Below, one piece after another: positions 28,856 through 42,629 of a stretch of 64,000 nt of DNA. A program made the position numbers and the translations under genes. The notes beneath the pieces were generated by a model, which saw only the letters and a list, made by a program, of their open reading frames with translations, ran no database searches and was not told the DNA's origin. The stretch's first letter is position 1, and every line of letters begins with the position of its first letter. Source of the stretch: a phage; the sequence record OZ413489.1; one strand, 5' to 3'.

Positions 28856-29280
28856 TGAGCACACACCCTCGTTTAGTGGATTGGCAAGAAAGATTGTGGA
28901 AAGTGTTTGACGAAGAGGCCACCATACCTTTTGAATGGGGATTCCACGATTGTTGCACCTTTGCAGCTAAGTGTGTTGATGCCCAATACGGAACAGATTT
29001 TCTTTCTAACTTCGAAGGAACGTATAAAACAGAGTTGGAAAGCAAAAGATGGTGCATGCTTCGTTTCAAAACCACACACCTGCCTACTATTTTTGATCTC
29101 TTTATGACTCGGCTGGATACTCCTAAACAGGTTCAGCGTGGAGATATTGTCATTTTCGAAGGTCTGAACGGGCTCACCGCTGGTGTGTTCTGGAACAACC
29201 AGATTTGGGCGAAAGGTGATAAAGGGGTCTTTATGTTCGACATGAAAGATTCTATCGTTGTTGATGTCTGGAGGTATTAA
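28855..29280 (+). CDS. NlpC/P60-like tail peptidase (tentative)
   Basis: Track ORF 28843-29280; ATG 28855 (141 aa); WGFHDCCTF and GDIVIFEG resemble phage NlpC/P60 Cys-His peptidases located before J-like genes. Confidence 0.35.
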   Translation: MSTHPRLVDWQERLWKVFDEEATIPFEWGFHDCCTFAAKCVDAQYGTDFLSNFEGTYKTELESKRWCMLRFKTTHLPTIFDLFMTRLDTPKQVQRGDIVIFEGLNGLTAGVFWNNQIWAKGDKGVFMFDMKDSIVVDVWRY

Positions 29281-32200
29281 TGCCAATTGCAATGATTGAT
29301 AACATCGTTGCTTCTGCAAGATCTTCAAGTTATGACTGGAACGCATCCAAGGCAGCTCTGGCTGACAGCCTGAACACTGTGACCACCAGAACTTTGGATA
29401 AGATTTTTGAGGGCAACAAATCTTACAGAAGTCAGCAAGATAGACAAAAGCTTCTCAGATCTTCTGCTGCACCTTGCTCTGTAGTGTATGGGAAGACACG
29501 CACATCTGGATTGCTTGCGTTTTTGGAGCAGGATAGCGACAGAACCCTCCATTGTGCTATTGTTCTTGCCAATCACCCTCTGGAAGGTATAGAAGATATA
29601 CTCATCGACGGTAATCCTATTTCCTCGTATGGGGATTTGGTATCGTGGGAGCTACATAACGACAGAAAAACATCGGATCCTTTCATGGGTACACACTGCC
29701 CATCGTGGTCACCAGACATGATAGGTAGAGGGATCAGTTGGCTACGTGCCAGCTTCAGGTTTGACCCTAACAAGTTCCCTTTTGGGTTGCCAAACGTTAC
29801 ACTCGTCAAGGTTGGTAAAAAATGCTATGATCCCCGTATCAGTAAAGAGGTGTATACCAATAACGCGGCCTTGGTGATCCTAGACTATTTAAGAACGTAC
29901 CTTAAATGTCCTGACGAAACCATCAACTGGGAGTCCTTCAAGGAGGCTGCCAACATATGCGACGAGGCGGTAAAAAACGCGGACGGAACCAGTGAGCGCC
30001 GTTACACCATTAACGGTGAGTTCGACATGGATGAGGCTCCAGCAAGTATTATGGCAGAAATGCTGAAAGCTTGTGGTGCAGATCTCAGCTATGTAGCTGG
30101 TAAGTATGGACTGCTGGTAGGTGCATACTATGGCCCGGCAACAATGACACTAAGTGAGGATTGTGTCTGCGGTGAGGTTAAGATCTATCCTGAAGCCTCA
30201 TTTGACAAAAGATCTAACACAATAACTGGCAGATTCACTAGTCCGACCAAAGGGTATTCTGAAACAGATTTTCCATCAGTGTTTGTCCCAGAGTGGATAG
30301 AGAAGGATGGAGAAAGAAAGATAATCGATATAGACTATCGCTTTGTTACCAGCCCTTATCAAGCTCAGCGTGTTTCTGCAATATTCTTAAGACGTGCCAG
30401 AGCTGGCAGGATTATTGAAGTCACCTGCAATATGCGAGGTTTTAAATTTAAGCCTGGTCGTTACGTCACAATGGATCTTCCAAGTATTGGTATAGTGGGC
30501 CAAGAAATGAGGGTTCTTGAATGGGAGTTCACCAAAAAGGGCGGTGTCAAGGTAAAACTTCGTCAAGATGCTAAAGAGTGGAATGATGCCACAGGGCAAC
30601 TTCCGGATTCCGGCGATGTAGATATTCCGATATCCCCGTCCGGTGTAGCTCAGCCGCAAAACTTCAGATACTCCGTTCTCCAAGCTGGGGAAGTAACTCA
30701 CGGTGTTTTGGCCTGGGACAACGTTGGGACTTACGCTCAAAATATTGTGCAGGTAAGAAAGAACGGAGAGATTGTTTGGACAGCACAGACAGTTGAGCAG
30801 TTTGTCAGAGTAGAAGGTTTGACAAAAGGGTCATACACAGCAACCGTGGTTGCAACATCTTATAAAGGTGGTGTATCTCCAGAAGCGTATTGTGAGTTTA
30901 ACATTCAGGCACCTGAAGCTCCGGTTTCTGTAGAGGTTAAGCAAGGATACTTTGCTATCACCTTGATTCCGCATAGTAGGGATTTAGCAAGTGTTAGCAC
31001 CCAGTATGACTTTTGGACATCCGGTATGACAAGGTTGCCCGACACCAGTGATGCAACCGTTACTTCAAACGCCACCCGTATGGGTGTTGGTTCAACTTGG
31101 ACATCTGAAGGTCTGCAGAACGATAAGGTTTATTATTGGTATATTCGAACCACAAACGCTTTTGGTAGTTCTCAGTTTGTAGAATGCGCTGCACGCTGCT
31201 ACACCTCTATTGAGGATTTGATGCCTCAGATAGATGCTGAATTTAAAAAGACAGAAACTTATAAAGAGTTGATGAGCACTTTAGATTCATCTATTGAAGA
31301 GGTTGAAAATAGGGTCACAGAACTTAACAGGTACATGGATGGTAGGGTAGATGAGGCATTCCAGCAACTTGGAGACAGAATAGGTGCGGTAGTTACAGAG
31401 ACAACTCAGAAGTTTGAGGATGTCAATGGCAATATCACAGCGCTGGATAGGAAACTTGTTGCTGCACAGAACAAGTTCACCAACGATCTGAACACTGAAA
31501 GTGGAAGATTGGCATCCCTGATTGAGACAACCAATAAAGCAACTACTGATCTTCTGAACAAAAAGACAGAGGCTTTAGATGAGAAATTGGTTGCCGCCAA
31601 AGGTGAGCTGGTAGAGCAGATAGAGGGAGTTGAGAGCGGGTATTTGGCCGGAGATAAAACTCTGGATGGTAAGATCAATACTCAGAGAACAGAACTTGAC
31701 GCAAGCATCTTGAGCACTAACCAGGCCACTGTGGATCTTTTGAACAGGACATCTGAAACTCTGGATCAAAAGATTAGTCAGACAAACGCGACGGTATCTA
31801 AAAACTATACCACCCTTGACGGCAAGATAACTACCGCAAAAACTGACCTCAACACCTTGATTGCCAATACCAACAAGGCCACCACTGACTTGTTGAATCA
31901 GAAAACATCTGCACTGTCAGAGCAGATAACTTCTGCACGTGGGGAGATTTCTACCAACAAGCAAGCGATTGATGCTTTGGATGGAAAACTGACCTCCACA
32001 AAAACAGCGCTGGATGCTACAATTTCCGATACCAATAAAGCCACTGTGGACCTTATCAACGGCACAGCGTCAGCTATTCGTCAAGAACTTGCTGTTGCTA
32101 AGCAGGAGATCATTGATGATGTTGGGGATGTGTCTGAGATCAGGGCTGCAGTAGCTACAACATCTAAGGCTGTAACCGACTTAGAGGGTAAAGTAAATGC

Positions 32201-33119
32201 TCAATGGGGCACAAAAATACAGGTAGACTCCGCAGGGAATAAATATGTTGCAGGTATTCAGTTGGGGATGGAAGGGTCTGGAGGCCAAGTTCAATCCTAC
32301 TTCATGGTTAGCGCAAACAATTTTGCGGTATACAACCCTGGCAATGGAACAGCAACCCTTGCTTTCGCAATCAAGAACAACCAAGCGTTCTTGAAAGACG
32401 CTTTTATAGAGAATGGCACGATCTCCTCTGCCAAGATTGCACAAGAAATTTCGTCAAACAACTACGATGGCAACGGGTACCATAAATACGGTTGGTATAT
32501 TAACAAGAACGGGCACGCCCAATTTATGGATGTGTGGGTGAAAGGCAACATCAACGCCAGTTCTGGTAACTTCACAGGGGCAGTTAACGCCACTAGTGGT
32601 ACCTTCCGTGGGGATGTTTATGCCAATAATGGTAGCTTTAGAGGCACCATAGATGCAACCGGAGGTACCTTCCGTGGTCGTGTAGAAGCTTCTGTTATCC
32701 GCGCTAACCAGTTCGAAGGTGCAATTGTTGCACACAGGACTTACGGAGATTGTGCTCCAGTATATAACTCCCAGCAAAGGGTTTGCCGTTGGAGGTGGAG
32801 ATACGTAGATAACGTTTCAGGTCAGGGTAAGAACGTAACATTCTTCTTTAAACTGAATGGTACTCTTGCCAGCTCCCAACTGAATGCATGGATAGCTGGT
32901 CATCAGATCCTTGCTGGCAAGAAGTATTTTAACGACAACAACGGCATGTGCGCGGTAGGGATAACAGGTCTTGGTGAACAAACTATAGACATTGTTATCG
33001 AGATTTACACACCGTGGTCAACGTCGAGCGTGACAGGTGTCACAATTTCCTGTCCTACTGTGATAGTAAGTCGTTCAAACTCTAGCTTCCAGGGACCTTG
33101 GAACGAGTCTCACGACTAA
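29280..33119 (+). CDS. host specificity / central tail fibre protein (lambda J-like)
   Basis: 1279 aa; N-terminal region resembling J-type tail proteins, FN3-like segment, four tandem coiled-coil repeats, C-terminal Gly-rich beta-helix-like repeats. Confidence 0.5.
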   Translation: MPIAMIDNIVASARSSSYDWNASKAALADSLNTVTTRTLDKIFEGNKSYRSQQDRQKLLRSSAAPCSVVYGKTRTSGLLAFLEQDSDRTLHCAIVLANHPLEGIEDILIDGNPISSYGDLVSWELHNDRKTSDPFMGTHCPSWSPDMIGRGISWLRASFRFDPNKFPFGLPNVTLVKVGKKCYDPRISKEVYTNNAALVILDYLRTYLKCPDETINWESFKEAANICDEAVKNADGTSERRYTINGEFDMDEAPASIMAEMLKACGADLSYVAGKYGLLVGAYYGPATMTLSEDCVCGEVKIYPEASFDKRSNTITGRFTSPTKGYSETDFPSVFVPEWIEKDGERKIIDIDYRFVTSPYQAQRVSAIFLRRARAGRIIEVTCNMRGFKFKPGRYVTMDLPSIGIVGQEMRVLEWEFTKKGGVKVKLRQDAKEWNDATGQLPDSGDVDIPISPSGVAQPQNFRYSVLQAGEVTHGVLAWDNVGTYAQNIVQVRKNGEIVWTAQTVEQFVRVEGLTKGSYTATVVATSYKGGVSPEAYCEFNIQAPEAPVSVEVKQGYFAITLIPHSRDLASVSTQYDFWTSGMTRLPDTSDATVTSNATRMGVGSTWTSEGLQNDKVYYWYIRTTNAFGSSQFVECAARCYTSIEDLMPQIDAEFKKTETYKELMSTLDSSIEEVENRVTELNRYMDGRVDEAFQQLGDRIGAVVTETTQKFEDVNGNITALDRKLVAAQNKFTNDLNTESGRLASLIETTNKATTDLLNKKTEALDEKLVAAKGELVEQIEGVESGYLAGDKTLDGKINTQRTELDASILSTNQATVDLLNRTSETLDQKISQTNATVSKNYTTLDGKITTAKTDLNTLIANTNKATTDLLNQKTSALSEQITSARGEISTNKQAIDALDGKLTSTKTALDATISDTNKATVDLINGTASAIRQELAVAKQEIIDDVGDVSEIRAAVATTSKAVTDLEGKVNAQWGTKIQVDSAGNKYVAGIQLGMEGSGGQVQSYFMVSANNFAVYNPGNGTATLAFAIKNNQAFLKDAFIENGTISSAKIAQEISSNNYDGNGYHKYGWYINKNGHAQFMDVWVKGNINASSGNFTGAVNATSGTFRGDVYANNGSFRGTIDATGGTFRGRVEASVIRANQFEGAIVAHRTYGDCAPVYNSQQRVCRWRWRYVDNVSGQGKNVTFFFKLNGTLASSQLNAWIAGHQILAGKKYFNDNNGMCAVGITGLGEQTIDIVIEIYTPWSTSSVTGVTISCPTVIVSRSNSSFQGPWNESHD
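31520..32100 (+). repeat. tandem 150-190-nt repeat units inside J-like gene
   Basis: Four diverged copies starting near 31530, 31716, 31869 and 32021 (ACCAATAAAGC... / TNKATxDLLN at protein level). Confidence 0.5.
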
Positions 33120-34726: not shown

Positions 34727-35413
34727 ATGGCAGAGATTAAGTCGGATGTTAACCACATCCACACTCTGCCAGATTTTGTTCAGGGAGGTCTTGACTACCT
34801 GCCTGGAGATTTTCTGGCTGAGAAGGTTAATTTGGTCACATTCTTAACCGTGTACCTTAAAAGGTTGGAGGATGTTGATAAGATGCTGGTAGGTTTGGCT
34901 GAAGGAAGATTGCTTAACAATGCCAGCGGAAGATACCTTGACGAAGTTGGTAATCAACTTGGTATTCTTAGGAATGGACTTTCAGATGCTGATTTTCGTG
35001 CCACACTAATTATTCAGCAGGCCGCAGCATCAAGGGGCGGGACTCGCGAAGATGTCATCTCCACCTTGCGACAATTGTTCGGAAGAAACAATTTCGATAC
35101 GTGGAAAGGAGACAACTTCAGGTTTGACATAAATATTAGAAAAACTTGCTTTGACATATTGCAGTCTATCGATCAGATCTTAGATATGCTACCATTGCCT
35201 TGTCATTTGCGTCTTACAGAATCGCAAGGGCAAGCTTTTGGTTTTGAAGGGGACCATACAGCTCTTGGCTTCGGATCAGTGTGGGAAGAAAACCAATTCG
35301 GAGTTGGTGGGCTGGCTACTTTGCTGTATGTTCCTGACGTAAGACCTGATTGGGACACCACAACCATTTATTGTGAAAGTATTACAGTAAACGCAACTAG
35401 ACAGGAGGGTTAA
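34727..35413 (+). CDS. baseplate protein (gpI-like, tentative)
   Basis: 228 aa; follows J-like gene as in P2/Mu-type baseplate modules. Confidence 0.4.
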   Translation: MAEIKSDVNHIHTLPDFVQGGLDYLPGDFLAEKVNLVTFLTVYLKRLEDVDKMLVGLAEGRLLNNASGRYLDEVGNQLGILRNGLSDADFRATLIIQQAAASRGGTREDVISTLRQLFGRNNFDTWKGDNFRFDINIRKTCFDILQSIDQILDMLPLPCHLRLTESQGQAFGFEGDHTALGFGSVWEENQFGVGGLATLLYVPDVRPDWDTTTIYCESITVNATRQEG

Positions 35414-37485
35414 TGGCAACAGCTATTTTTAAACCTTACCGTGATTACTCTACAATGGCTGCACGGTTTCATTACCGCACAGTTCAGGATACTGCAGTTC
35501 CTGGTAGGGATTATAATCATGTTGAGGGTGATGTAACTATCCCAATTGGGGCAACCAGTATTGAGATCCCAGTGGAAATTGTTGACAAATTACCCAACAG
35601 GTTGCCAAGAAGCTTCTTTATGGAGTTTTCATCAAAATCTCAAGGGGTGATGATTGGAACACAAAGGGCGAAATGTACAATAGTTTCAGATGAGAATCTT
35701 GACAGGATATCTTGGGATACTGTCGAGGAGAGAATGTTTCACCCAAGATATTGGGTTACATCTACCCAGCAGACTGAAAGCACCTGTATTGTTGCAGATA
35801 ATAACTGTTGTATTAACCGTTTAGTGTCAAGAACATATGGAGGTATGGCTGGGTGCATTTGGGAAACAGTTGACAAGTATGACCATTTCGGTATTGGGTT
35901 TGATGATCATTATGAGATGAGAAATACCAAGCTTTGGTTCAGAATGTCAATAACCAACGCCAGCAACTTCTCCACTCCTGAAAAGATGATTATGACTGTA
36001 GACCTTGTTGATGGCACAATCATCTATGTTCCTTTAGCTCAATATGCTGTCAGCATCTCAGAGGATAAGAATGTTGCAGAAATTCATATTGATTTCGAGG
36101 ACTGCGTCGGGATGGACCAGAACAACAATATGATGGGTGTTGATCCTCGACAGGTGAGAAGGATTTTAATACCGCTTATGCCTAAAGATTGGGTAAGCAA
36201 TAGCACAAACCCAAGAACGGAAAATGTAGAGTGTGAGTTGCGCCTAGATCTGCTTCAGCCAGACACAGGCTGGAAAATGATGCAACTTAACAATATTCAG
36301 GTGAAAGAACACGACGTTGGGATCTGCACAGCATATGACGATATGTGGAACGTGTCTCCTTTAAGGGTGTTGAACAATATCAAGCGTCTGGGCTATACCG
36401 GAACCATAAACCATTATGTTGGTATGAGTCATTATTATGACTACACATGGTCAGGAACTCAATGGTCTATAAACAGAACAGGAGCGCTAAACGCTGCAGC
36501 TTATAAATGGCATGATGATTTTATGTACAATGCCAAACGACATAACTTCGACGTTATGCAATCTGTAAGTTTTGAGCTTTTCAGCGATGCCTGCCCGTTG
36601 GAATGGACCCAAAGAGACTGGAACGATAACTACGCTAAAACAGGGTATACACCTTGTAGCTACCTCCTGTCTCCAACCATTGAAGAGGGTATGAATTTCC
36701 TTACTGCAGTATTTAAGAATTTTGCATCAGCCGCTATGAGAAACAACCTGCCAGTGATTATGCAGGTTGGTGAACCGTGGTGGTGGTACAATACCGATAC
36801 TCGTAGACCTTGTATTTATGATTACCCTACAAAGCAGGCGTTTTATGATGAGACAGGTGAGTATGCATTAGATATTGGGACTATTGACGATCCTAAAACT
36901 GGCGGTGTTTACGACAAGTATGTAGCATTTTGTCGTGGTAAGCTTGGCGCTCGTATTGCGGCTATTTCAAAGGCAATAAAGGCACACGCTGCATCAGCTC
37001 AGATGACAGCTCTACTGTTTTTCCCAACCATTATGGAAACCGAGCTTACGCAAAAGCTTAACCTTGCTGACCAATATAAAAAGGAAGCAGGTGCTCTTGA
37101 TTTCTTCTGCACCGAGTGCTACGATTGGGTGATGCAGGGAGGTATTGAAAAGGCAAAAGAGTCTGTAAACATACCTATCGTTAAGTTAGGTTGGCAACCG
37201 TCTGAAATACAATACCTTGCAGGGTTCGTTCCTAGTAAAGAGCTTGCTCCGGTATATGGTTACGACCCAACCAGGAATTACCAAGAATTTTTATGGAGAT
37301 GTATTTGCGGAAACATGGCAACTATAGAGTATAGATATCCTGAGGTAAAACAGTATGTGTGGGCATACCCGCAAGTAATGTCTGACAGCATCACTGTTAC
37401 CGCTAGAGATTCTACCGTGCTTCATATGGGGCAGGTTGCTCTGAAAGGGTATGTAGAAGATGTTGTCCCGCCAGACTTCTCATAA
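35413..37485 (+). CDS. tail-associated protein with Calx-beta-like N-terminus and enzyme-like body
   Basis: 690 aa; GRDYNHVEGDVTIPIGATSIEIPVEIVD resembles a Calx-beta fold; remainder Trp/Tyr-rich. Confidence 0.35.
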   Translation: MATAIFKPYRDYSTMAARFHYRTVQDTAVPGRDYNHVEGDVTIPIGATSIEIPVEIVDKLPNRLPRSFFMEFSSKSQGVMIGTQRAKCTIVSDENLDRISWDTVEERMFHPRYWVTSTQQTESTCIVADNNCCINRLVSRTYGGMAGCIWETVDKYDHFGIGFDDHYEMRNTKLWFRMSITNASNFSTPEKMIMTVDLVDGTIIYVPLAQYAVSISEDKNVAEIHIDFEDCVGMDQNNNMMGVDPRQVRRILIPLMPKDWVSNSTNPRTENVECELRLDLLQPDTGWKMMQLNNIQVKEHDVGICTAYDDMWNVSPLRVLNNIKRLGYTGTINHYVGMSHYYDYTWSGTQWSINRTGALNAAAYKWHDDFMYNAKRHNFDVMQSVSFELFSDACPLEWTQRDWNDNYAKTGYTPCSYLLSPTIEEGMNFLTAVFKNFASAAMRNNLPVIMQVGEPWWWYNTDTRRPCIYDYPTKQAFYDETGEYALDIGTIDDPKTGGVYDKYVAFCRGKLGARIAAISKAIKAHAASAQMTALLFFPTIMETELTQKLNLADQYKKEAGALDFFCTECYDWVMQGGIEKAKESVNIPIVKLGWQPSEIQYLAGFVPSKELAPVYGYDPTRNYQEFLWRCICGNMATIEYRYPEVKQYVWAYPQVMSDSITVTARDSTVLHMGQVALKGYVEDVVPPDFS

Positions 37486-37497
37486 TCAGGAGATAAA

Positions 37498-38538
37498 ATG
37501 TCAAAACCTAGTTTTCCATTAGAGATTTGGGCAGAGGAGGATCAGGTTCTGCCTAACACCCACAGACAGAACAGGCTACGCCCGATTGATGATTTGTGGA
37601 GAAAAGGTTGGGATCTTGGTCAAAAGCCCTCATGTGAAGAACTTAACTATATTTTCAATATGCTCGGGACTTGGGCAAAATACATCGCTGACGAGCAGAT
37701 CCCCGCTCAAGAAGGCCGTTATCTGGTACGTGATAATAACTTGAGTGATCTTTTGAACATTCCTGTTGCCCGTAGAAACCTTGGGATTATTACTAAGGAA
37801 GAGGCAGACGCCAGGTATGTAAAAGTTACAGGTGATACAATGACAGGCCCATTGGGTTTGCAACGTATCAACTTTAAAGCTGCCGAGTCAGATAAGGCTT
37901 GGATAGAGACAACTATTGGCCCAGATAAGACAACTCTCGACTTTGGGTTAAGTGATAATACCGGGTCGTTTGATGATGGTGGTACATCTACAGTGGATGC
38001 GTTCCGTTGGAGATTCCAGCCAACTCAGCCGGATATTAATCCAGAGTTCACTTTGATGTACCTTAACGCGATCACGGCTAACCGTGCGCTGTTGAAAGTG
38101 GTAGGCAATGTTGAAGTTGTCGATAACATGAGGTGCAATAACCTTACTATCAGCAATACAGCGACATTCACCAACTGTAATGTGGCTAGTCAGTTGACGG
38201 CTGGGTCAGTGTATGTTAATGGTGGTGCAAGTTGTGACAGTATGGTTGTAAGAAGCCAGCACTGTGTTGTCGGTAACAGAAATGTGGTTCGCTCTGTGAA
38301 CGGAGTGACGGCTAACGGTAACGGTGATGTAACGATCACTATCCCGCAGACAGGTGTGCAAGACATCAGAATCGGTGCAAGACTTGTTGACGGCGTTTCC
38401 GAATCTCCAATTCGCAACGGCTACGTTGTCACAGGCTGGCATTTCGGTGACAAAAAAGAGATGCGTGGTTCAACCTACTGGGCAGGACCTTTACAAAAAC
38501 TTGTAAACGGTCAATGGATCACTGTTAATTATGCATAG
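37498..38538 (+). CDS. tail fibre protein (P2 H-like C-terminus), copy 1
   Basis: 346 aa; AGGAGA RBS; C-terminus ...LQKLVNGQWITVNYA resembles the P2 H fibre C-terminus (recollection); followed by Tfa gene. Confidence 0.55.
   Translation: MSKPSFPLEIWAEEDQVLPNTHRQNRLRPIDDLWRKGWDLGQKPSCEELNYIFNMLGTWAKYIADEQIPAQEGRYLVRDNNLSDLLNIPVARRNLGIITKEEADARYVKVTGDTMTGPLGLQRINFKAAESDKAWIETTIGPDKTTLDFGLSDNTGSFDDGGTSTVDAFRWRFQPTQPDINPEFTLMYLNAITANRALLKVVGNVEVVDNMRCNNLTISNTATFTNCNVASQLTAGSVYVNGGASCDSMVVRSQHCVVGNRNVVRSVNGVTANGNGDVTITIPQTGVQDIRIGARLVDGVSESPIRNGYVVTGWHFGDKKEMRGSTYWAGPLQKLVNGQWITVNYA
38494..38523 (+). repeat. 30-nt conserved segment at fibre 3' end (copy 1)
   Basis: CAAAAACTTGTAAACGGTCAATGGATCACT; 29/30 identical to 40552-40581. 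Confidence 0.6.
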
Positions 38539-38552
38539 ATCGGAGGACTAGC

Positions 38553-39137
38553 ATGAAAATACTTCAAGAGTTTAAACTTTACCAACCGGGATCTGGCGAA
38601 TACCACTCCAACAAGGAAACCAAGGAGCTGACCCCTCAAGAGGTTGAGGATTACACCGCATACACTGGGTATTTTTTACGTAATGATGATGGCGATTGGT
38701 ATGTGCAGTCACGAACATTACGACAAGAAAATCCGGGTTGTATCTTCCTACTTGTTGACGAGAAGGGAATTCTTAAGACATCTACAGAAGAACCTGATGC
38801 CTTATGGCCTGCTCCAGGTCTTCGTGTGGTTATCGCCAAAAAAGAAGAGGTACCAGAAAACATTATGCTTCACCACGACGCTTTGCGTTTAGTTGGTGAT
38901 GAATTTGTCACAGATAATGAATTCTTTGTTCAACAGGCAGAGGGTGTCATAGAGACAGAACTTGCTTGGGCTACTGCTAGAATTGGTGCCTATCAAGACA
39001 TGATTGACCTTGAATATGATCTTACTGATGACCAGAAACGTAACATCAGAGATTTGAAAATGTACAGGGTAAAACTTCTTGAAATAGATACATCTAAAGC
39101 CCCTGACATTTTCTTCCCGGAGCGACCTACCCTCTAA
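38553..39137 (+). CDS. tail fibre assembly protein (Tfa-like)
   Basis: 194 aa; C-terminal ELAWATARIGAYQDMIDLEYDLTDDQKRNIRDLKMYRVKLLEIDTSKAPDIFFPERP matches the Tfa C-terminal domain pattern. Confidence 0.55.
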   Translation: MKILQEFKLYQPGSGEYHSNKETKELTPQEVEDYTAYTGYFLRNDDGDWYVQSRTLRQENPGCIFLLVDEKGILKTSTEEPDALWPAPGLRVVIAKKEEVPENIMLHHDALRLVGDEFVTDNEFFVQQAEGVIETELAWATARIGAYQDMIDLEYDLTDDQKRNIRDLKMYRVKLLEIDTSKAPDIFFPERPTL

Positions 39138-39148
39138 GAGGAGGTGTT

Positions 39149-39463
39149 GTGGAGTTGGATTTGGCGGCATTGTACGGTATCTGCATGGGTACCGTTGTCC
39201 CGATCTGTGTATGGGCTTTCAACCAGTGGCACACCAAATGGAAAGGCATTTCCAAGAGGTTGGATGAACTGGAGAAAGACCTCATCTTAGTGAAAAACAG
39301 TATGGTTACAAAAGATAAACTTGATTCCGTTATCGAGACCCGGTTAAGCAAGCTAGAGGCCGATATTAACGACCTTAAGCAGGATGTCAGGACAGATGTC
39401 TCCGGCATCCGAGCTGATGTACAAAAGATTTTGCACATGCTCGTAGAGCATAGTAAAAGGTAA
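39149..39463 (+). CDS. small membrane-anchored coiled-coil protein
   Basis: 104 aa; GTG start with AGAGGAGG RBS; hydrophobic N-terminus AALYGICMGTVVPICVWAF then coiled coil. Confidence 0.3.
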   Translation: MELDLAALYGICMGTVVPICVWAFNQWHTKWKGISKRLDELEKDLILVKNSMVTKDKLDSVIETRLSKLEADINDLKQDVRTDVSGIRADVQKILHMLVEHSKR

Positions 39464-39472
39464 ACAAAGGTC

Positions 39473-39505
39473 AGAACGGAAAGGACTCCGTTCTTGCATT
39501 TTGTT
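39473..39505 (+). terminator. rho-independent terminator
   Basis: AGAACGGA-AAGGAC-TCCGTTCT then TGCATTTTGTT. Confidence 0.55.
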
Positions 39506-39522
39506 CTCTAAAGTGTTAAAAT
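39494..39522 (+). promoter_or_regulatory. sigma70-like promoter, TTGCAT-17-TGtTAAAAT
   Basis: -35 39494-39499 (overlaps terminator 3' end), -10 39517-39522 preceded by TGT. Confidence 0.4.
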
Positions 39523-39552
39523 AGTCCTAAGGAATTTTCTCAGGAGAACGTG

Positions 39553-40596
39553 ATGACTAAACCAGTTATCCCTCTTGATATTTGGGCCAATCAGGATGTT
39601 GTGCTTGAAAATACGGGAGAGTTGAATAAATCTCAACCAAAAAAAGAAGAGAGATTGAAAGGTTGGGATATGACACAAAGAGTGGCATGTGAAGTTGTTA
39701 ACTTTGAACTCCACATGCTTTCTGCGTGGTTAAAGCATTTAACAGAAGATGTTGTCCCAGGATGGGATAATAGATTCTTAAGGGTCACTAATAATCTAGC
39801 AGACGTTCCAGACAAAGCTGCTGCACGTCAAGTTCTCAATGTATACTCGCCTGAAGAAATGGACGATCTGTATGTTGACAAGTCTGGAGACATAATGACT
39901 CAGACTCAAACTTTAGGCCTTCAAAGAATCGAGTTTGCATCTGCGTCAACAGACAATGCGGCAATATATACCACCATAACTCCAGACAAGACGACGATGG
40001 ATTTCTGGATTATGGACAACATCGGTGGTGCTGACGGCACAGACCTTGATGATCCTTCTCACCAAATAGACGGGTTCCGTTGGAGATTTCAACCTTCTGG
40101 TGGGCAGCCTGTGTTTTCGGCTATGAAGCTCAATGCTATAACTGCCAACCGTGCAAGACTGGCCATCCAAGGAAATCTTGAATGCAACGATGCAAAAAGT
40201 TCCTCTGCAAATGCCAATGCGGTCACGATACCAAGAGCCACTGTTAACGGACAACAATCCTGCGGAATCGCTCAAATAGGTGGAAGAGTTGATTGTAACG
40301 ATGAAACAGTCAGGGGTCAATATGCAACAGTTGGTGGAAGAAACGTGGTCCGCAGGGTAAATGGTAACGGCGCAGACAGTAGTGGTAACCTTACTATCCC
40401 TATGCCCAGCAGAGGGGTTGATGATGTAAGGATAGCAAACCGTTTCAAAACCACCTACAGAGAGTCAAGAGTCTACCCTGGACATGTGATGTGCTCTGGT
40501 AACTACGCTTATAAACACCCTTATCAAGGTGATTACTGGACAGGTGCTATCCAAAAACTTGTAAATGGTCAATGGATCACTATATCTTATGCTTAA
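39553..40596 (+). CDS. tail fibre protein (P2 H-like C-terminus), copy 2
   Basis: Track ORF 39550; ATG 39553 with AGGAGA RBS; 347 aa; diverged paralogue of 37498-38538 with shared FRWRFQP and ...QKLVNGQWITISYA. Confidence 0.55.
   Translation: MTKPVIPLDIWANQDVVLENTGELNKSQPKKEERLKGWDMTQRVACEVVNFELHMLSAWLKHLTEDVVPGWDNRFLRVTNNLADVPDKAAARQVLNVYSPEEMDDLYVDKSGDIMTQTQTLGLQRIEFASASTDNAAIYTTITPDKTTMDFWIMDNIGGADGTDLDDPSHQIDGFRWRFQPSGGQPVFSAMKLNAITANRARLAIQGNLECNDAKSSSANANAVTIPRATVNGQQSCGIAQIGGRVDCNDETVRGQYATVGGRNVVRRVNGNGADSSGNLTIPMPSRGVDDVRIANRFKTTYRESRVYPGHVMCSGNYAYKHPYQGDYWTGAIQKLVNGQWITISYA
40552..40581 (+). repeat. 30-nt conserved segment at fibre 3' end (copy 2)
   Basis: CAAAAACTTGTAAATGGTCAATGGATCACT. 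Confidence 0.6.
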
Positions 40597-40607
40597 AAAG
40601 AGGGTAA

Positions 40608-40874
40608 ATGAAACTAACTCAGTTTTTATGGGGACTGGTTGCGGCATCTGATGACCCTACGAAAGTGTCCCAAACTAAGCTATGGTCGAACATAGGCATG
40701 GCGGTGATGACTGGGGTGTTTATTCATATGGGGTATAATGATACGCTTCCTGAATGGTATGCGTGGATATACGCGCCTTCAGTAGCTTGCCCCCAGCTTA
40801 TTAGCAAATTCATCTCGCTCCGGTGGGGTTGCCAGCACCCTGACCACGTTAAAAACGAAGAGCAAAAAGCTTAA
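40608..40874 (+). CDS. small membrane protein
   Basis: 88 aa; AGAGGG RBS; hydrophobic segments IGMAVMTGVFIHMGY and WYAWIYAPSVA. Confidence 0.3.
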   Translation: MKLTQFLWGLVAASDDPTKVSQTKLWSNIGMAVMTGVFIHMGYNDTLPEWYAWIYAPSVACPQLISKFISLRWGCQHPDHVKNEEQKA

Positions 40875-40883
40875 GGAGAAATC

Positions 40884-42629
40884 ATGGCGCAAGACATGAC
40901 AAGCTTTGAGCAGGCGGTAGATCAAGTAATTGTTGATTCTGAACGTTTGCACCTGATTGTCAACGGTAACGCTGTGGATGAAGTTGTCGTAGAGGATGGG
41001 ACCACCATCCCTACGGTACGAAAAGCCATGCTTGACACCCTTTATTTTAAAACGCCACCGATCCCTTGGGCGTATGGTGCATCCACAACAGTTTTTAACC
41101 AGCTGTACGAGTTTAAAGGGGACACAGGCCCTCAGTGGTGGTACGCTCCCGCAGCATCAAAATCTAACCCGGTTAGAATGCCAGCAGATCCTTCACAATC
41201 TCCAAACTGGAGATTATATACCGATTCTGCAGTAATGGCAAAATACTACGCAAAACTTAACAGTCCGAGGTTCGAAGGTGACCCGCGAGTACCTACGCCT
41301 CCAATGGACGACAAATCCGAGTCTATAGCAAACACAGAGTTTGTTGTTGACTATGTGGATAGCATATTTGAAGCCATGGAGGGAATGAAAGTTACTGTAG
41401 GGTCTTTGGTGGTAAAAGGTCTTACAGAACTTGCTAACACTATAGTTGGTGGCACACTCACCTTACATGGGCCTGTTAATGGAGCAGATTCTACTGCACG
41501 CTTCAGGAACCTAATCCTCACGGCAAATACTTCTACACTTACTTTTGCGTGGAGTGATCCTAAGCATGCAGACTGGAGAAGCACAGAGCTGCAACCTCAT
41601 GAAGTGTCCACCCACAGGGTTATAGCTGACACTATAACTTCTGGGAAACCAGTGGCTAATAATAACGATGTGCATTTTGATGGTCTAGGTAATAACTTTT
41701 TTGACTACGTGTACATTCGTGGTAATGCCATGAAGGCAGCAACCGAACCGACATTGCAGGTAGATGGAACCACCAGGGTTAAGAACCTTGAGGTGACAGG
41801 CACTGTTACAGGGATAACCTACTCTGTCGATGGCACCATGATTTACCCTAGCTATATTGAAAGCACGGGGGACGCATTAATAAATGGTGATTTAGAAGTT
41901 GGCGGATCTGTAGTTATTCGAGGTACAGCCTCTATCCAAAACATAGCTCTGAATACCCTAAGAGTCAATGAGCGTGCAACTTTTGAAGGGGAAGGGCTTA
42001 CAGCCAACAAAGGTGTAATTACCGAGCTGACAACCACTACTTTAACTGCAACAACTGCAAACTCTGAAAACTGCAACGTTACCAGAAACTTGCAGGTAAA
42101 TGGAGATGTTAGTTTAAACGCAGCAGGGACGGGCACCACCTACCTTCACAACCTTGAAATATCCGGCACAGTGACTGGGTGGCTGCCAGACTTCTCTAAT
42201 GTCAACTTTGTTTGTAATGGCATTAACTCCAGTGGCAAGATAACCACCTCTCAAGAAATTGAGGCGGGTAAAACCATTACTGCCCCTACTTTCCACGCAG
42301 GAAAGGTAGATTTTGATTTAGAGGAGGTTGACGCGTCCAGTGGGACATGGACACCTAACGGGCAGGCCAGTATGTATGTTGTCCACGCGAAAGGGGATTT
42401 TACAATAGGACAATGGCCTGGTACATCAGCGGAAGATAAACCTTATCCATTCACTGCGGTTATCTATGTCATTCAGGATGCTGTAGGTCACAACGTGACT
42501 TTGCACGATAAGTATGCTATCCTGTCGGCAACGCCTGTTATTAATAACAAGGCTAATAGTGTTACCTTGCTGCAATTAACATATTGTGGTGTTGGTGATA
42601 TCGTAGACGTAGTAATTGCACAACGTTAA
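40884..42629 (+). CDS. tail fibre or spike protein
   Basis: 581 aa; AAGGAG RBS; Thr/Gly/Val-rich beta-helix-like repeats. Confidence 0.4.
   Translation: MAQDMTSFEQAVDQVIVDSERLHLIVNGNAVDEVVVEDGTTIPTVRKAMLDTLYFKTPPIPWAYGASTTVFNQLYEFKGDTGPQWWYAPAASKSNPVRMPADPSQSPNWRLYTDSAVMAKYYAKLNSPRFEGDPRVPTPPMDDKSESIANTEFVVDYVDSIFEAMEGMKVTVGSLVVKGLTELANTIVGGTLTLHGPVNGADSTARFRNLILTANTSTLTFAWSDPKHADWRSTELQPHEVSTHRVIADTITSGKPVANNNDVHFDGLGNNFFDYVYIRGNAMKAATEPTLQVDGTTRVKNLEVTGTVTGITYSVDGTMIYPSYIESTGDALINGDLEVGGSVVIRGTASIQNIALNTLRVNERATFEGEGLTANKGVITELTTTTLTATTANSENCNVTRNLQVNGDVSLNAAGTGTTYLHNLEISGTVTGWLPDFSNVNFVCNGINSSGKITTSQEIEAGKTITAPTFHAGKVDFDLEEVDASSGTWTPNGQASMYVVHAKGDFTIGQWPGTSAEDKPYPFTAVIYVIQDAVGHNVTLHDKYAILSATPVINNKANSVTLLQLTYCGVGDIVDVVIAQR

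Follow-up and report, generated by a model that had tools for sequence, protein, structure and literature searches.

Two paralogous short-tail-fibre genes of an rV5-like phage, fibA (gp33 in rV5) and fibB (gp30), carry near-identical 3' ends that were probably generated by recurrent short-tract gene conversion between the two copies, with no dedicated recombination site involved. Comparison of the sequences demonstrated homology of the two genes, an excess of synonymous identity, co-variation of the paralogs within individual genomes and long identical tracts in relatives.

The short-tail-fibre module and its products

The DNA analysed, here called the window, is a 64-kb stretch of sequence record OZ413489.1 that was identified as Vequintavirus (an rV5-like myophage of E. 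coli), with phage HeinrichReichert as a nucleotide match of 99.5% over 4 kb. In the nucleotide search, 114 records spanned at least 80% of this 4-kb query, and the matching HeinrichReichert genes are annotated as two short tail fibres with a chaperone between them. Synteny of the module held gene by gene, in the order NCTSP-like fibre, short tail fibre, Tfa, 104-aa gene, short tail fibre, 88-aa gene and next fibre. The region is the Vequintavirus short-tail-fibre module, composed of two old paralogous fibre genes with one Tfa gene between them, and its features are as follows.

37498–38538, + strand: fibA, short tail fibre paralog A, 346 aa (open reading frame; phrog_4465 tail fibre, 2e-171; 'short tail fiber protein' in HeinrichReichert)
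37498–37821, + strand: N-terminal baseplate-anchor domain of fibA, aa 1–108 (phmmer to 9CUY residues 1–111, E = 1.4e-19)
38001–38015, + strand: FRWRFQP-motif patch, copy A, a second small homogenised patch (15-nt exact repeat of 40074–40088)
38353–38535, + strand: C-terminal tip of fibA, aa 286–346, Mu S/P2 H type (Mu S residues 441–501, BLASTP E = 1e-6)
38494–38523, + strand: 30-nt block, copy A, encoding QKLVNGQWIT (29/30 to copy B)
38553–39137, + strand: tfa, tail fibre assembly chaperone, 194 aa (PF02413 Caudo_TAP, 9e-12; phrog_136, 2e-36)
39149–39463, + strand: 104-aa protein, hydrophobic N-terminal stretch followed by a heptad-like charged region (phrog_5345, 1e-48)
39473–39494, + strand: predicted terminator-like hairpin and T-run 5' of fibB (consensus scan of the sequence)
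39553–40596, + strand: fibB, short tail fibre paralog B, 347 aa (open reading frame; phrog_4465, 3e-165; HeinrichReichert annotation)
40074–40088, + strand: FRWRFQP-motif patch, copy B (15-nt exact repeat of 38001–38015)
40552–40581, + strand: 30-nt block, copy B (29/30 to copy A)
40608–40874, + strand: 88-aa membrane protein after fibB, not a chaperone (phrog_1322 membrane protein, 1e-32)

This gene arrangement is already known, as publications of 2013 and 2021 had described gp33 and gp30 as short-tail-fibre paralogs, and rV5 gp33/gp32/gp30 form the published picture of two paralogs with a chaperone (PMC3606486; PMC8594841). The window carries the same genes as rV5 (BASEL bas58_0035-0038) in equal order and with equal lengths, fibA corresponding to rV5 gp33/bas58_0035, tfa to rV5 gp32 and fibB to rV5 gp30/bas58_0038, and no difference from the rV5 module was seen. 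Protein identity of fibB was still 95.7% in the most divergent Vequintavirus record of the collection.

A preliminary description of this DNA had proposed two diverged fibre genes in the same orientation, and both were indeed found as intact + strand open reading frames whose products share 42% identity over their full length (BLASTP E = 6e-93), in comparison to the 42.3% reported for the rV5 pair. The motifs FRWRFQP and, at the C-terminus, QKLVNGQWIT(V/I)(N/S)YA are present in both proteins as described. The N-terminal conservation also noted there is shared but is not the best-kept part, with residues 1–110 at 38% identity in comparison to 57–58% for residues 111–200. Two start positions (39550 and 39553) are candidates for fibB, of which the ATG at 39553, located 6 nt past an AGGAG, is likely. 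Neither gene is a pseudogene; both are intact, fibB and its ortholog in the related genome L017 differ with pN of 0.14 and pS of 0.83, and fibA and fibB are functional fibre paralogs under purifying selection, accompanied by one chaperone. Mass spectrometry of rV5 virions is reported to have found both paralogs and Tfa (PMC3606486).

Each fibre consists of a phiTE-like N-terminal anchor, a shaft and a Mu S/P2 H-type tip at the C-terminus. The initial label 'P2 H-like' is right for the last ~60 residues only, where fibA matched P2 H residues 609–666 at E = 0.001 and fibB resembled P2 H marginally at E = 0.13; Mu S was the better match to fibA (E = 1e-6; 5YVQ by phmmer, E = 2e-6). The label does not extend to the N-terminal ~100 residues, which match the phiTE short-tail-fibre anchor 9CUY in fibA (E = 1e-19) and, over 9CUY residues 1–83, in fibB (PDB phmmer, E = 1.5e-8). 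Outside the tip, nothing significant was found against Mu S or P2 H except a weak stretch of Mu S shaft (E = 1e-4). The fibA tip is 58.6% identical to a Rosemountvirus fibre tip, and fibB is assigned to this tip type through its homology to fibA. The tip terminates in Q-K/Y-x-V/I/L-N-G-x-W, the motif encoded by the 30-nt block. With regard to the T4 gp12 type of short tail fibre, an HHpred match to 1PDI has been reported for rV5 (PMC3606486); fibA and fibB had no gp12 chain among their PDB phmmer matches at E up to 1 and no Pfam match, and an AlphaFold2 monomer of fibA (10-sequence alignment) gave no usable fold at a mean pLDDT of 32.

As first described, the chaperone gene follows the first fibre copy only. 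A single tfa was found in the 64-kb window (PF02413; one tblastn match) with no second, hidden tfa detected by tblastn, and a Caudo_TAP gene lies directly downstream of fibA, whereas the 88-aa membrane protein takes this place after fibB. Comparison of Tfa to the PDB returned nothing but noise (E > 1e-4). The adjoining 104-aa gene lies next to tfa in all relatives (Av-05, Seunavirus and L017-L023), where it is labelled a putative membrane protein. Relatives with a single fibre have a 157-aa gene in the fibB slot, followed by a protein of equal size and annotation to the 88-aa one; no homolog of the 157-aa gene was found in the window.

The 30-nt block in the window and in related phages

Pairwise alignment confirmed that positions 38494–38523 and 40552–40581 are identical at 29 of 30 nucleotides, with one differing base (AAC versus AAT). 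They form a direct repeat, the copies being 2058 nt apart, and 100 shuffles of the window yielded zero 30-mer matches with three or fewer mismatches. Shuffling of synonymous codons within each gene, retaining proteins and codon usage, gave a mean of 24/30 and P(≥29/30) of 0.0013–0.002; calculation from codon frequencies gave P = 0.0023 for identity at 8 or more of the 9 degenerate codons. The explanation by codon constraint alone, which the preliminary description had named as a possible refutation, was not upheld by these values. Taken alone, the window contains an excess of about five synonymous matches, and this becomes convincing only once related lineages are added.

The comparison genomes are mostly metagenome or Logan assemblies, not isolates. 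Over residues 1–110, fibA orthologs are 75–94% identical to each other and fibB orthologs 60–95%, in comparison to 37–40% between fibA and fibB, and the fibres of Avunavirus and Seunavirus, which are present as a single copy, are nearer to fibA (53–57%) than to fibB. Synonymous sites are saturated between the two genes of the window (pS 0.84) and also between the window genes and their L017-L019 orthologs (pS 0.79–0.83). The duplication is old as judged from these comparisons, the fibA and fibB orthogroups having arisen before at least three lineages diverged.

In L017-L019 the fibA and fibB blocks again agree at 28–29 of 30 positions, and both L017-lineage copies use the codons CTG, GTC and CAG where both copies of the window use CTT, GTA and CAA. 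Block identity is 29/30 between paralogs within a genome (window and L017) versus 25–27/30 between orthologs; the block has three concerted sites and zero sites with an orthology pattern, in comparison to 213 orthology-pattern sites among the 1023 aligned sites. Codon shuffles of the L017 genes gave P = 0.0037 for the block and P = 0.0007 for the exact run. A lineage-wide codon shift behind the parallel changes was rejected, as codon usage is alike in the window and L017 lineages and GTC is rare in both. The FRWRFQP motif behaves similarly, its Arg being encoded by CGT in fibA and fibB of the window and by AGA in the two L017 genes, which are identical over 20 nt at this motif.

Exact runs between the paralogs were also found in the tips of other relatives, with 110 nt in L021 (a length reached by 0 of 3000 shuffles); L031/L037 have runs of 59 and 39 nt, and L023 has one of 30 nt. 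Residues common to both paralogs differ by lineage (L020 versus L021: K/E, A/P and G/S), and the C-terminal tails likewise co-vary in both paralogs (...YA versus ...QTL). The shuffle test was not significant for L020 (P = 0.056), and in the L020-type genomes, the largest uncultured group, the block is not homogenised (21–23/30 in L020, L021 and L028, the last by hand count); conversion here sits further upstream within the tip, and an A-type tip is present on both fibres. Across genomes, block identity between fibA and fibB ranged from 21/30 to 30/30, with YP-6 at 26/30, and orthologs from other genera retain the motif with differing codons (20–23/30, hand count). The exact block was confined to Vequintavirus-like contigs in IMG/VR, and spread as a mobile module was rejected on this ground.

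Origin of the near-identical 3' ends

The preliminary description had proposed the block as a possible recombination site for fibre swapping. Recombination at the block is supported because the paralogs co-vary within genomes when related phages are compared. It does not look like a dedicated site, as the window has no invertase homolog, the copies are direct repeats and their sequence drifts between genomes; the pattern resembles short-tract conversion by general recombination at conserved motifs. Protein constraint alone would account for about 24/30, and the surplus identity probably stems from conversion of short tracts between fibA and fibB by non-allelic homologous recombination. Such conversion would begin at conserved motifs that already provide DNA identity and would recur among related phages, with the copying possibly performed by general recombination of the host or the phage. 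A like C-terminus may in turn let one Tfa serve both fibres, and fibA and fibB may bind different LPS-core structures.

It is improbable that structural constraint on QKLVNGQWIT, codon preference and chance produced the block with no recombination. The motif is kept from Mu S and P2 H through all Vequintavirinae fibres, constraint by itself goes most of the way to the identity seen, and the block of the L020-type genomes stays close to that expectation. The shuffle probabilities of the window (about 0.002) and of L017, with codons differing between these lineages, nevertheless argue against this reading, as do the three parallel synonymous changes, including one to the rare GTC, that occurred with no shift in codon usage, and the 110- and 59-nt exact tracts of relatives are impossible by this route. 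A functional nucleic-acid element, whether recombinase crossover site, promoter or RNA structure, is more improbable still. Fibres of the Mu (Gin/gix) and P1 (Cin/cix) type, which have related tips, carry short crossover sites within the gene, and the block lies 12–15 nt before its own stop codons and 29 nt (fibA) or 26 nt (fibB) before the start of the next gene. The copies are direct repeats, however, so that site-specific recombination between them would remove tfa together with most of fibB, and no Gin homolog was found in the window by tblastn; the annotation of the HeinrichReichert record likewise contains no invertase or integrase from 27 to 137 kb, the part covered here. The nucleotide sequence also changes between lineages, with 25–27/30 between orthologs and 26/30 between the copies in YP-6. 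No sigma-70-like promoter was called on the + strand in 37000–41200, and minimum free energy folds of the 3' end with the downstream start gave no common helix in four versions. A TTGTAA within the block is lost in L017. Least credible of all is a remnant of recent tandem duplication that has yet to diverge. The genes are adjacent, co-oriented and of equal length, but lineage comparison refuted this origin, given the saturated synonymous sites outside the patches, the orthogroups that predate the split of the lineages, and the concerted changes of the block between lineages, which are impossible for a passive remnant.

A further alternative accepts conversion and adds selection, in that tracts would persist since both fibres need a matching C-terminal surface for the single Tfa or for mixed trimers. 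The presence of two fibres with one Tfa, and of Tfa in rV5 virions (PMC3606486), is consistent with this, as is the binding of Mu-type Tfa to the distal fibre through its variable N-domain (PMC9608196). The Tfa N-domain co-varies with the ...YA and ...QTL tails, with 41–43% identity between lineages (48–50 of 115 residues). Against it, the fibB tip is otherwise just 33% identical to that of fibA over residues 286–331, so that a common Tfa interface is not obvious, and neutral, self-perpetuating conversion at conserved motifs fits the data equally well. We consider a selective contribution of this kind somewhat unlikely. Gene conversion between the paralogs may be extended, tentatively and with slightly less reserve, to a view in which they exchange tracts repeatedly, keep their C-termini matched to Tfa and sometimes move the whole tip, the pair thereby acting as a reservoir of specificity within the genome.

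Comparison with other fibre systems and wider meaning

The C-terminal ~60-residue tip is homologous to that of Mu S, with chaperone U (5YVQ), and of P2 H, with G, including the terminal PxQKxxNGxW strand, and in both systems the Caudo_TAP chaperone gene lies directly downstream as it does for fibA. In contrast, the N-terminal anchor is unrelated to those of Mu S and P2 H, and the shaft lacks significant alignment apart from the Mu S stretch noted above. Unlike Mu, the window contains neither an invertible segment nor an invertase and has two fibre genes per chaperone, and its two blocks are direct repeats, in contrast to the inverted crossover sites that flank alternative C-terminal segments in Mu Gin/gix and P1 Cin/cix switching. 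Homology at the N-terminal ~100 residues is instead to the short tail fibre of phiTE (9CUY/9MJN; Certrevirus, Vequintavirinae), of which residues 3-92 bind baseplate wedge protein 1 as a joint (PMC11972413); the phiTE fibre and the window fibres also have a common C-terminal PIQKKVNGVWVTI motif. phiTE, which is flagellotropic, has one fibre of 554 aa that includes Ig-like domains as well as a long coiled coil, whereas the window has two of 346–347 aa.

For gp37/gp38 of T-even phages, PMC3157838, citing Tetart 1996 and 1998, places exchanges in or beside the most conserved short motifs (His boxes, glycine-rich) flanking variable receptor-binding segments. As described there, the T-even exchanges involve co-infecting phages and one locus, while those of the window would involve two paralogs of the same genome. 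The outcome here also differs, being homogenisation, including transfer of the whole tip in the L020-type lineage. Concerted 3'-end evolution is not mentioned in the papers that we searched or read.

Phages of the rV5 type are common coliphages with a broad host range and are used in collections for typing, biocontrol and therapy. That the two fibres would widen host range, as the preliminary description also supposed, has been put forward in print as a hypothesis ('two chemotypes of LPS'). The gene pair was already known, and the modest contribution made here is evidence that both genes evolve non-independently, with short conversion tracts apparently homogenising their tips and C-termini across several lineages. 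Fibre phylogenies would be affected, as trees built from tips will mislead, and there would be consequences for receptor prediction from sequence. In fibre engineering, a new tip placed in one paralog may be lost again through copying from the other. The pair also offers a cheap natural example of what appears to be motif-seeded recombination between paralogs in a lytic phage and, on the tentative reservoir view given above, would allow receptor specificity to be reset or duplicated without a co-infecting donor.

Gene layout and domain make-up of the fibre pair

The two short tail fibre paralogs fibA and fibB (equivalents of rV5 gp33 and gp30) are separated by the chaperone gene tfa (equivalent of rV5 gp32) and a 104-aa gene.

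Genes of the fibre region (all open reading frames)
37498-38538, + strand: fibA, 346 aa
38553-39137, + strand: tfa, 194 aa
39149-39463, + strand: 104-aa gene, phrog_5345
39553-40596, + strand: fibB, 347 aa
40608-40874, + strand: 88-aa gene, phrog_1322 membrane protein

The 4 kb around the pair showed 99.5% identity to Escherichia phage HeinrichReichert (Bas58, Vequintavirus), where the five genes are annotated in order as short tail fibre, tail fibre chaperone, hypothetical, short tail fibre and hypothetical, and 95–99% identity to more than 100 further rV5-like records. The rV5 paper gave 42.3% identity between gp30 (347 aa) and gp33 (PMC3606486), and the BASEL paper described, for Vequintavirinae sensu stricto, two paralogous short tail fibres plus a chaperone with homology to Mu S and U and with little allelic variation (PMC8594841). 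The two fibres with one chaperone noted in the preliminary description are thus real but already in print; since both papers describe the pair, the arrangement and its hypothetical dual-receptor reading were published before, and the pair as an object is already known. About 16–21 GenBank records (MG0656xx) with the name 'Campylobacter phage' and Campylobacter jejuni as host share about 99% identity with rV5-like phages of E. coli. This host label looks doubtful. In Escherichia phage navn (MN850642.1) a tblastn search with fibA gave three places, not two.

Profile matches (PF02413 9e-12; phrog_136 2e-36) identify the 194-aa product as a tail fibre assembly protein of the Caudo_TAP family, and its gene was the sole Tfa copy in the 64-kb window, in agreement with the claim that only fibA is followed by a chaperone. 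An in-frame GTG occurs at 39550 upstream of fibB, yet AGGAG precedes the ATG at 39553 by 6 nt; as a terminator-like hairpin with a T-run also separates the 104-aa gene from fibB (39473-39494), fibB may head a transcription unit of its own. The 104-aa and 88-aa proteins were kept within the tail-fibre cluster in all relatives examined. Just 5' of fibA, a 690-aa protein (35413-37485) corresponding to the NGR-glycan-binding fibre of the literature combines a Calx-beta domain with non-contractile tail sheath domains like those of N4 gp65 (PF23845 4e-80; PF23844), and a 1279-aa fibre protein (29280-33119) has several tandem coiled-coil units around repeated TNKATTDLLN/TNQATVDLLN. The GC-skew sign flips near 48 kb, and annotated genes of the closest genome go from + to - at the matching position.

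BLASTP aligned fibA and fibB from end to end with 42% identical residues (E = 6e-93), and both contain FRWRFQP and the C-terminus QKLVNGQWIT(V/I)(N/S)YA, as first described. The N-terminal region reported as conserved is not the best-conserved part, residues 1–110 being 38% and residues 111–200 57–58% identical. Neither protein had a Pfam match. Among PDB sequences, the short tail fibre of phiTE (9CUY) matched residues 1 to ~100 (E = 1.4e-19 for fibA, 1.5e-8 for fibB); residues 3–92 of the phiTE fibre are the joint binding baseplate wedge protein 1 (PMC11972413). The last ~60 residues of fibA matched Mu fibre S (5YVQ, E = 2e-6; 1e-6 by direct BLASTP). Direct BLASTP to P2 H aligned the C-terminal ~60 residues only (E = 0.001 for fibA, 0.13 for fibB), so the term 'P2 H-like' suits the tip and not the rest. 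The sequence of the terminal strand is PVQKNINGTWYNV in Mu S, PIQKYINGTWYNV in P2 H and PIQKKVNGVWVTI in phiTE, the same motif as QKLVNGQWIT here. In Salmonella phage SPLA2 (Rosemountvirus, an unrelated 53-kb myophage; L006 1852-4245), the last ~58 residues of a 444-aa fibre were 58.6% identical to the fibA tip, which is evidence that the tip is a horizontally mobile module; two tandem tfa genes come after that fibre.

The 30-nt block and concerted evolution

The segments encoding QKLVNGQWIT (38494-38523 in fibA, 40552-40581 in fibB) differ at one base, confirming the reported 29/30 identity. Identical residues with degenerate codons used the same codon in 32% of cases (42/132) outside this block and in 8/9 inside. 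Permutation of synonymous codons inside the two genes, with the protein sequences and the codon usage of either gene held constant, gave a mean of 24/30 for the block and at least 29/30 at P = 0.0013–0.002, while codon frequencies of eight neighbouring genes gave P = 0.0023 for at least 8/9 identical codons. Codon constraints alone do not explain the block, and judged on the window alone its excess identity is modest. In other genera, fibres encoded in single copy retain the peptide motif with different codons (20–23/30 against the window block by hand count for Av-05, Seunavirus, phi92-like PaulScherrer and SPLA2); no nucleotide constraint holds universally. Within Vequintavirus, block identity between the paralogs of one genome was 30/30 in HeinrichReichert and assembly L035, 28/30 in ECP26, and 26/30 in YP-6 and assembly L029.

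Distant dual-fibre genomes, gathered by fibB protein search and contig look-ups and by pattern scans of IMG/VR and JGI metagenomes, formed two groups: L017-L019, with fibB 78% identical to that of the window, and a larger uncultured group at 45–48% (measured on L020, L021 and L023, with further scan contigs assigned by the group's block and C-terminal sequences). Orthologs of the window and L017 are saturated at synonymous sites (pS 0.79 for A, 0.83 for B), although the L017 block is again 29/30 identical between paralogs. Both L017 copies read CAA AAA CTG GTC AAT GGT CAG TGG ATC ACK and both window copies CAA AAA CTT GTA AAY GGT CAA TGG ATC ACT; as the pairs differ at the same three codons, parallel synonymous changes have taken place in fibA and fibB alike (window positions 38502, 38505 and 38514). 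Codon usage is alike in the two lineages, GTC being rare in both (13–14%). The first Arg codon of FRWRFQP is CGT in both window paralogs and AGA in both L017 paralogs, where A and B have a 20-nt exact run in common at this motif.

Homogenised tracts of the uncultured group are located in the tip. Paralogs of L021 had 110 identical nt (reached by 0/3000 shuffles), those of L031 and L037 59+39 nt, and those of L023 30 nt. Both paralogs of this group carry an A-type tip (83–87% identical over residues 286–331), common lineage-specific residues (K/E, A/P, G/S) and the tail ...QTL, versus ...YA in the window lineage. Over residues 1–110, A sequences were 75–94% identical to each other, B sequences 60–95% and A versus B 37–40%, with A closer (53–57%) to the single-copy fibres of Avunavirus and Seunavirus. 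Outside the patches, fibA and fibB thus behave as old separate orthogroups and, with patches alike within genomes, the pattern is the one classically left by gene conversion between paralogs of long standing. The uncultured lineage (L020, L021, L023, L026, L028, L031, L033, L037), with the same tip type on both paralogs, encodes a 692-aa NCTSP-like, a 346-aa A and a 351–359-aa B fibre; it was absent from the phage collection, where the best fibB match was 49%.

Origin of fibB and route of homogenisation

In Av-05, Seunavirus and contig L022 the fibre gene is followed by tfa, the 104-aa gene, a gene for a 157-aa membrane protein, the 88-aa gene and the next fibre, and all dual-fibre genomes examined have fibB in place of the 157-aa gene. 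No homolog of this gene occurs in the window; the FENT2 annotation assigns it to phrog_7451, and in L022 it is PF26221 Phage_phiTE_239.

Positions of the 157-aa membrane protein gene in single-fibre relatives
L002: 4949-5422
L003: 4997-5470
L004: 4961-5434
L012: 5557-6030
L022: 6958-7431

No Gin-like invertase was found in the window, and no invertase or integrase is annotated at 27–137 kb of the HeinrichReichert record, where an EndoVII-type recombination endonuclease, a 5'-exonuclease, a ligase and several homing endonucleases are. The blocks are direct repeats, and with a site-specific crossover between them tfa plus most of fibB would be lost. Neither a promoter nor a common RNA fold accounting for the block was found. 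Taken together, these results point to general homologous recombination, which would be seeded at short identical stretches within conserved motifs. The block, proposed earlier as a recombination site for fibre swapping, does mark recombination, probably as a gene-conversion patch and not as a dedicated swap site.

The finding that the 3' parts of fibA and fibB evolve in concert, of which we met no mention in the rV5 paper, the BASEL paper or the literature searched, is a small addition to this known system. The C-termini may be kept matched since both fibres have to rely on a single Tfa: Tfa has been reported from rV5 virions (PMC3606486), Mu-type Tfa binds the distal fibre via its variable N-domain (PMC9608196), and fibre tails and the Tfa N-domain co-change between lineages. 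A neutral process that perpetuates itself would account for the data just as well.
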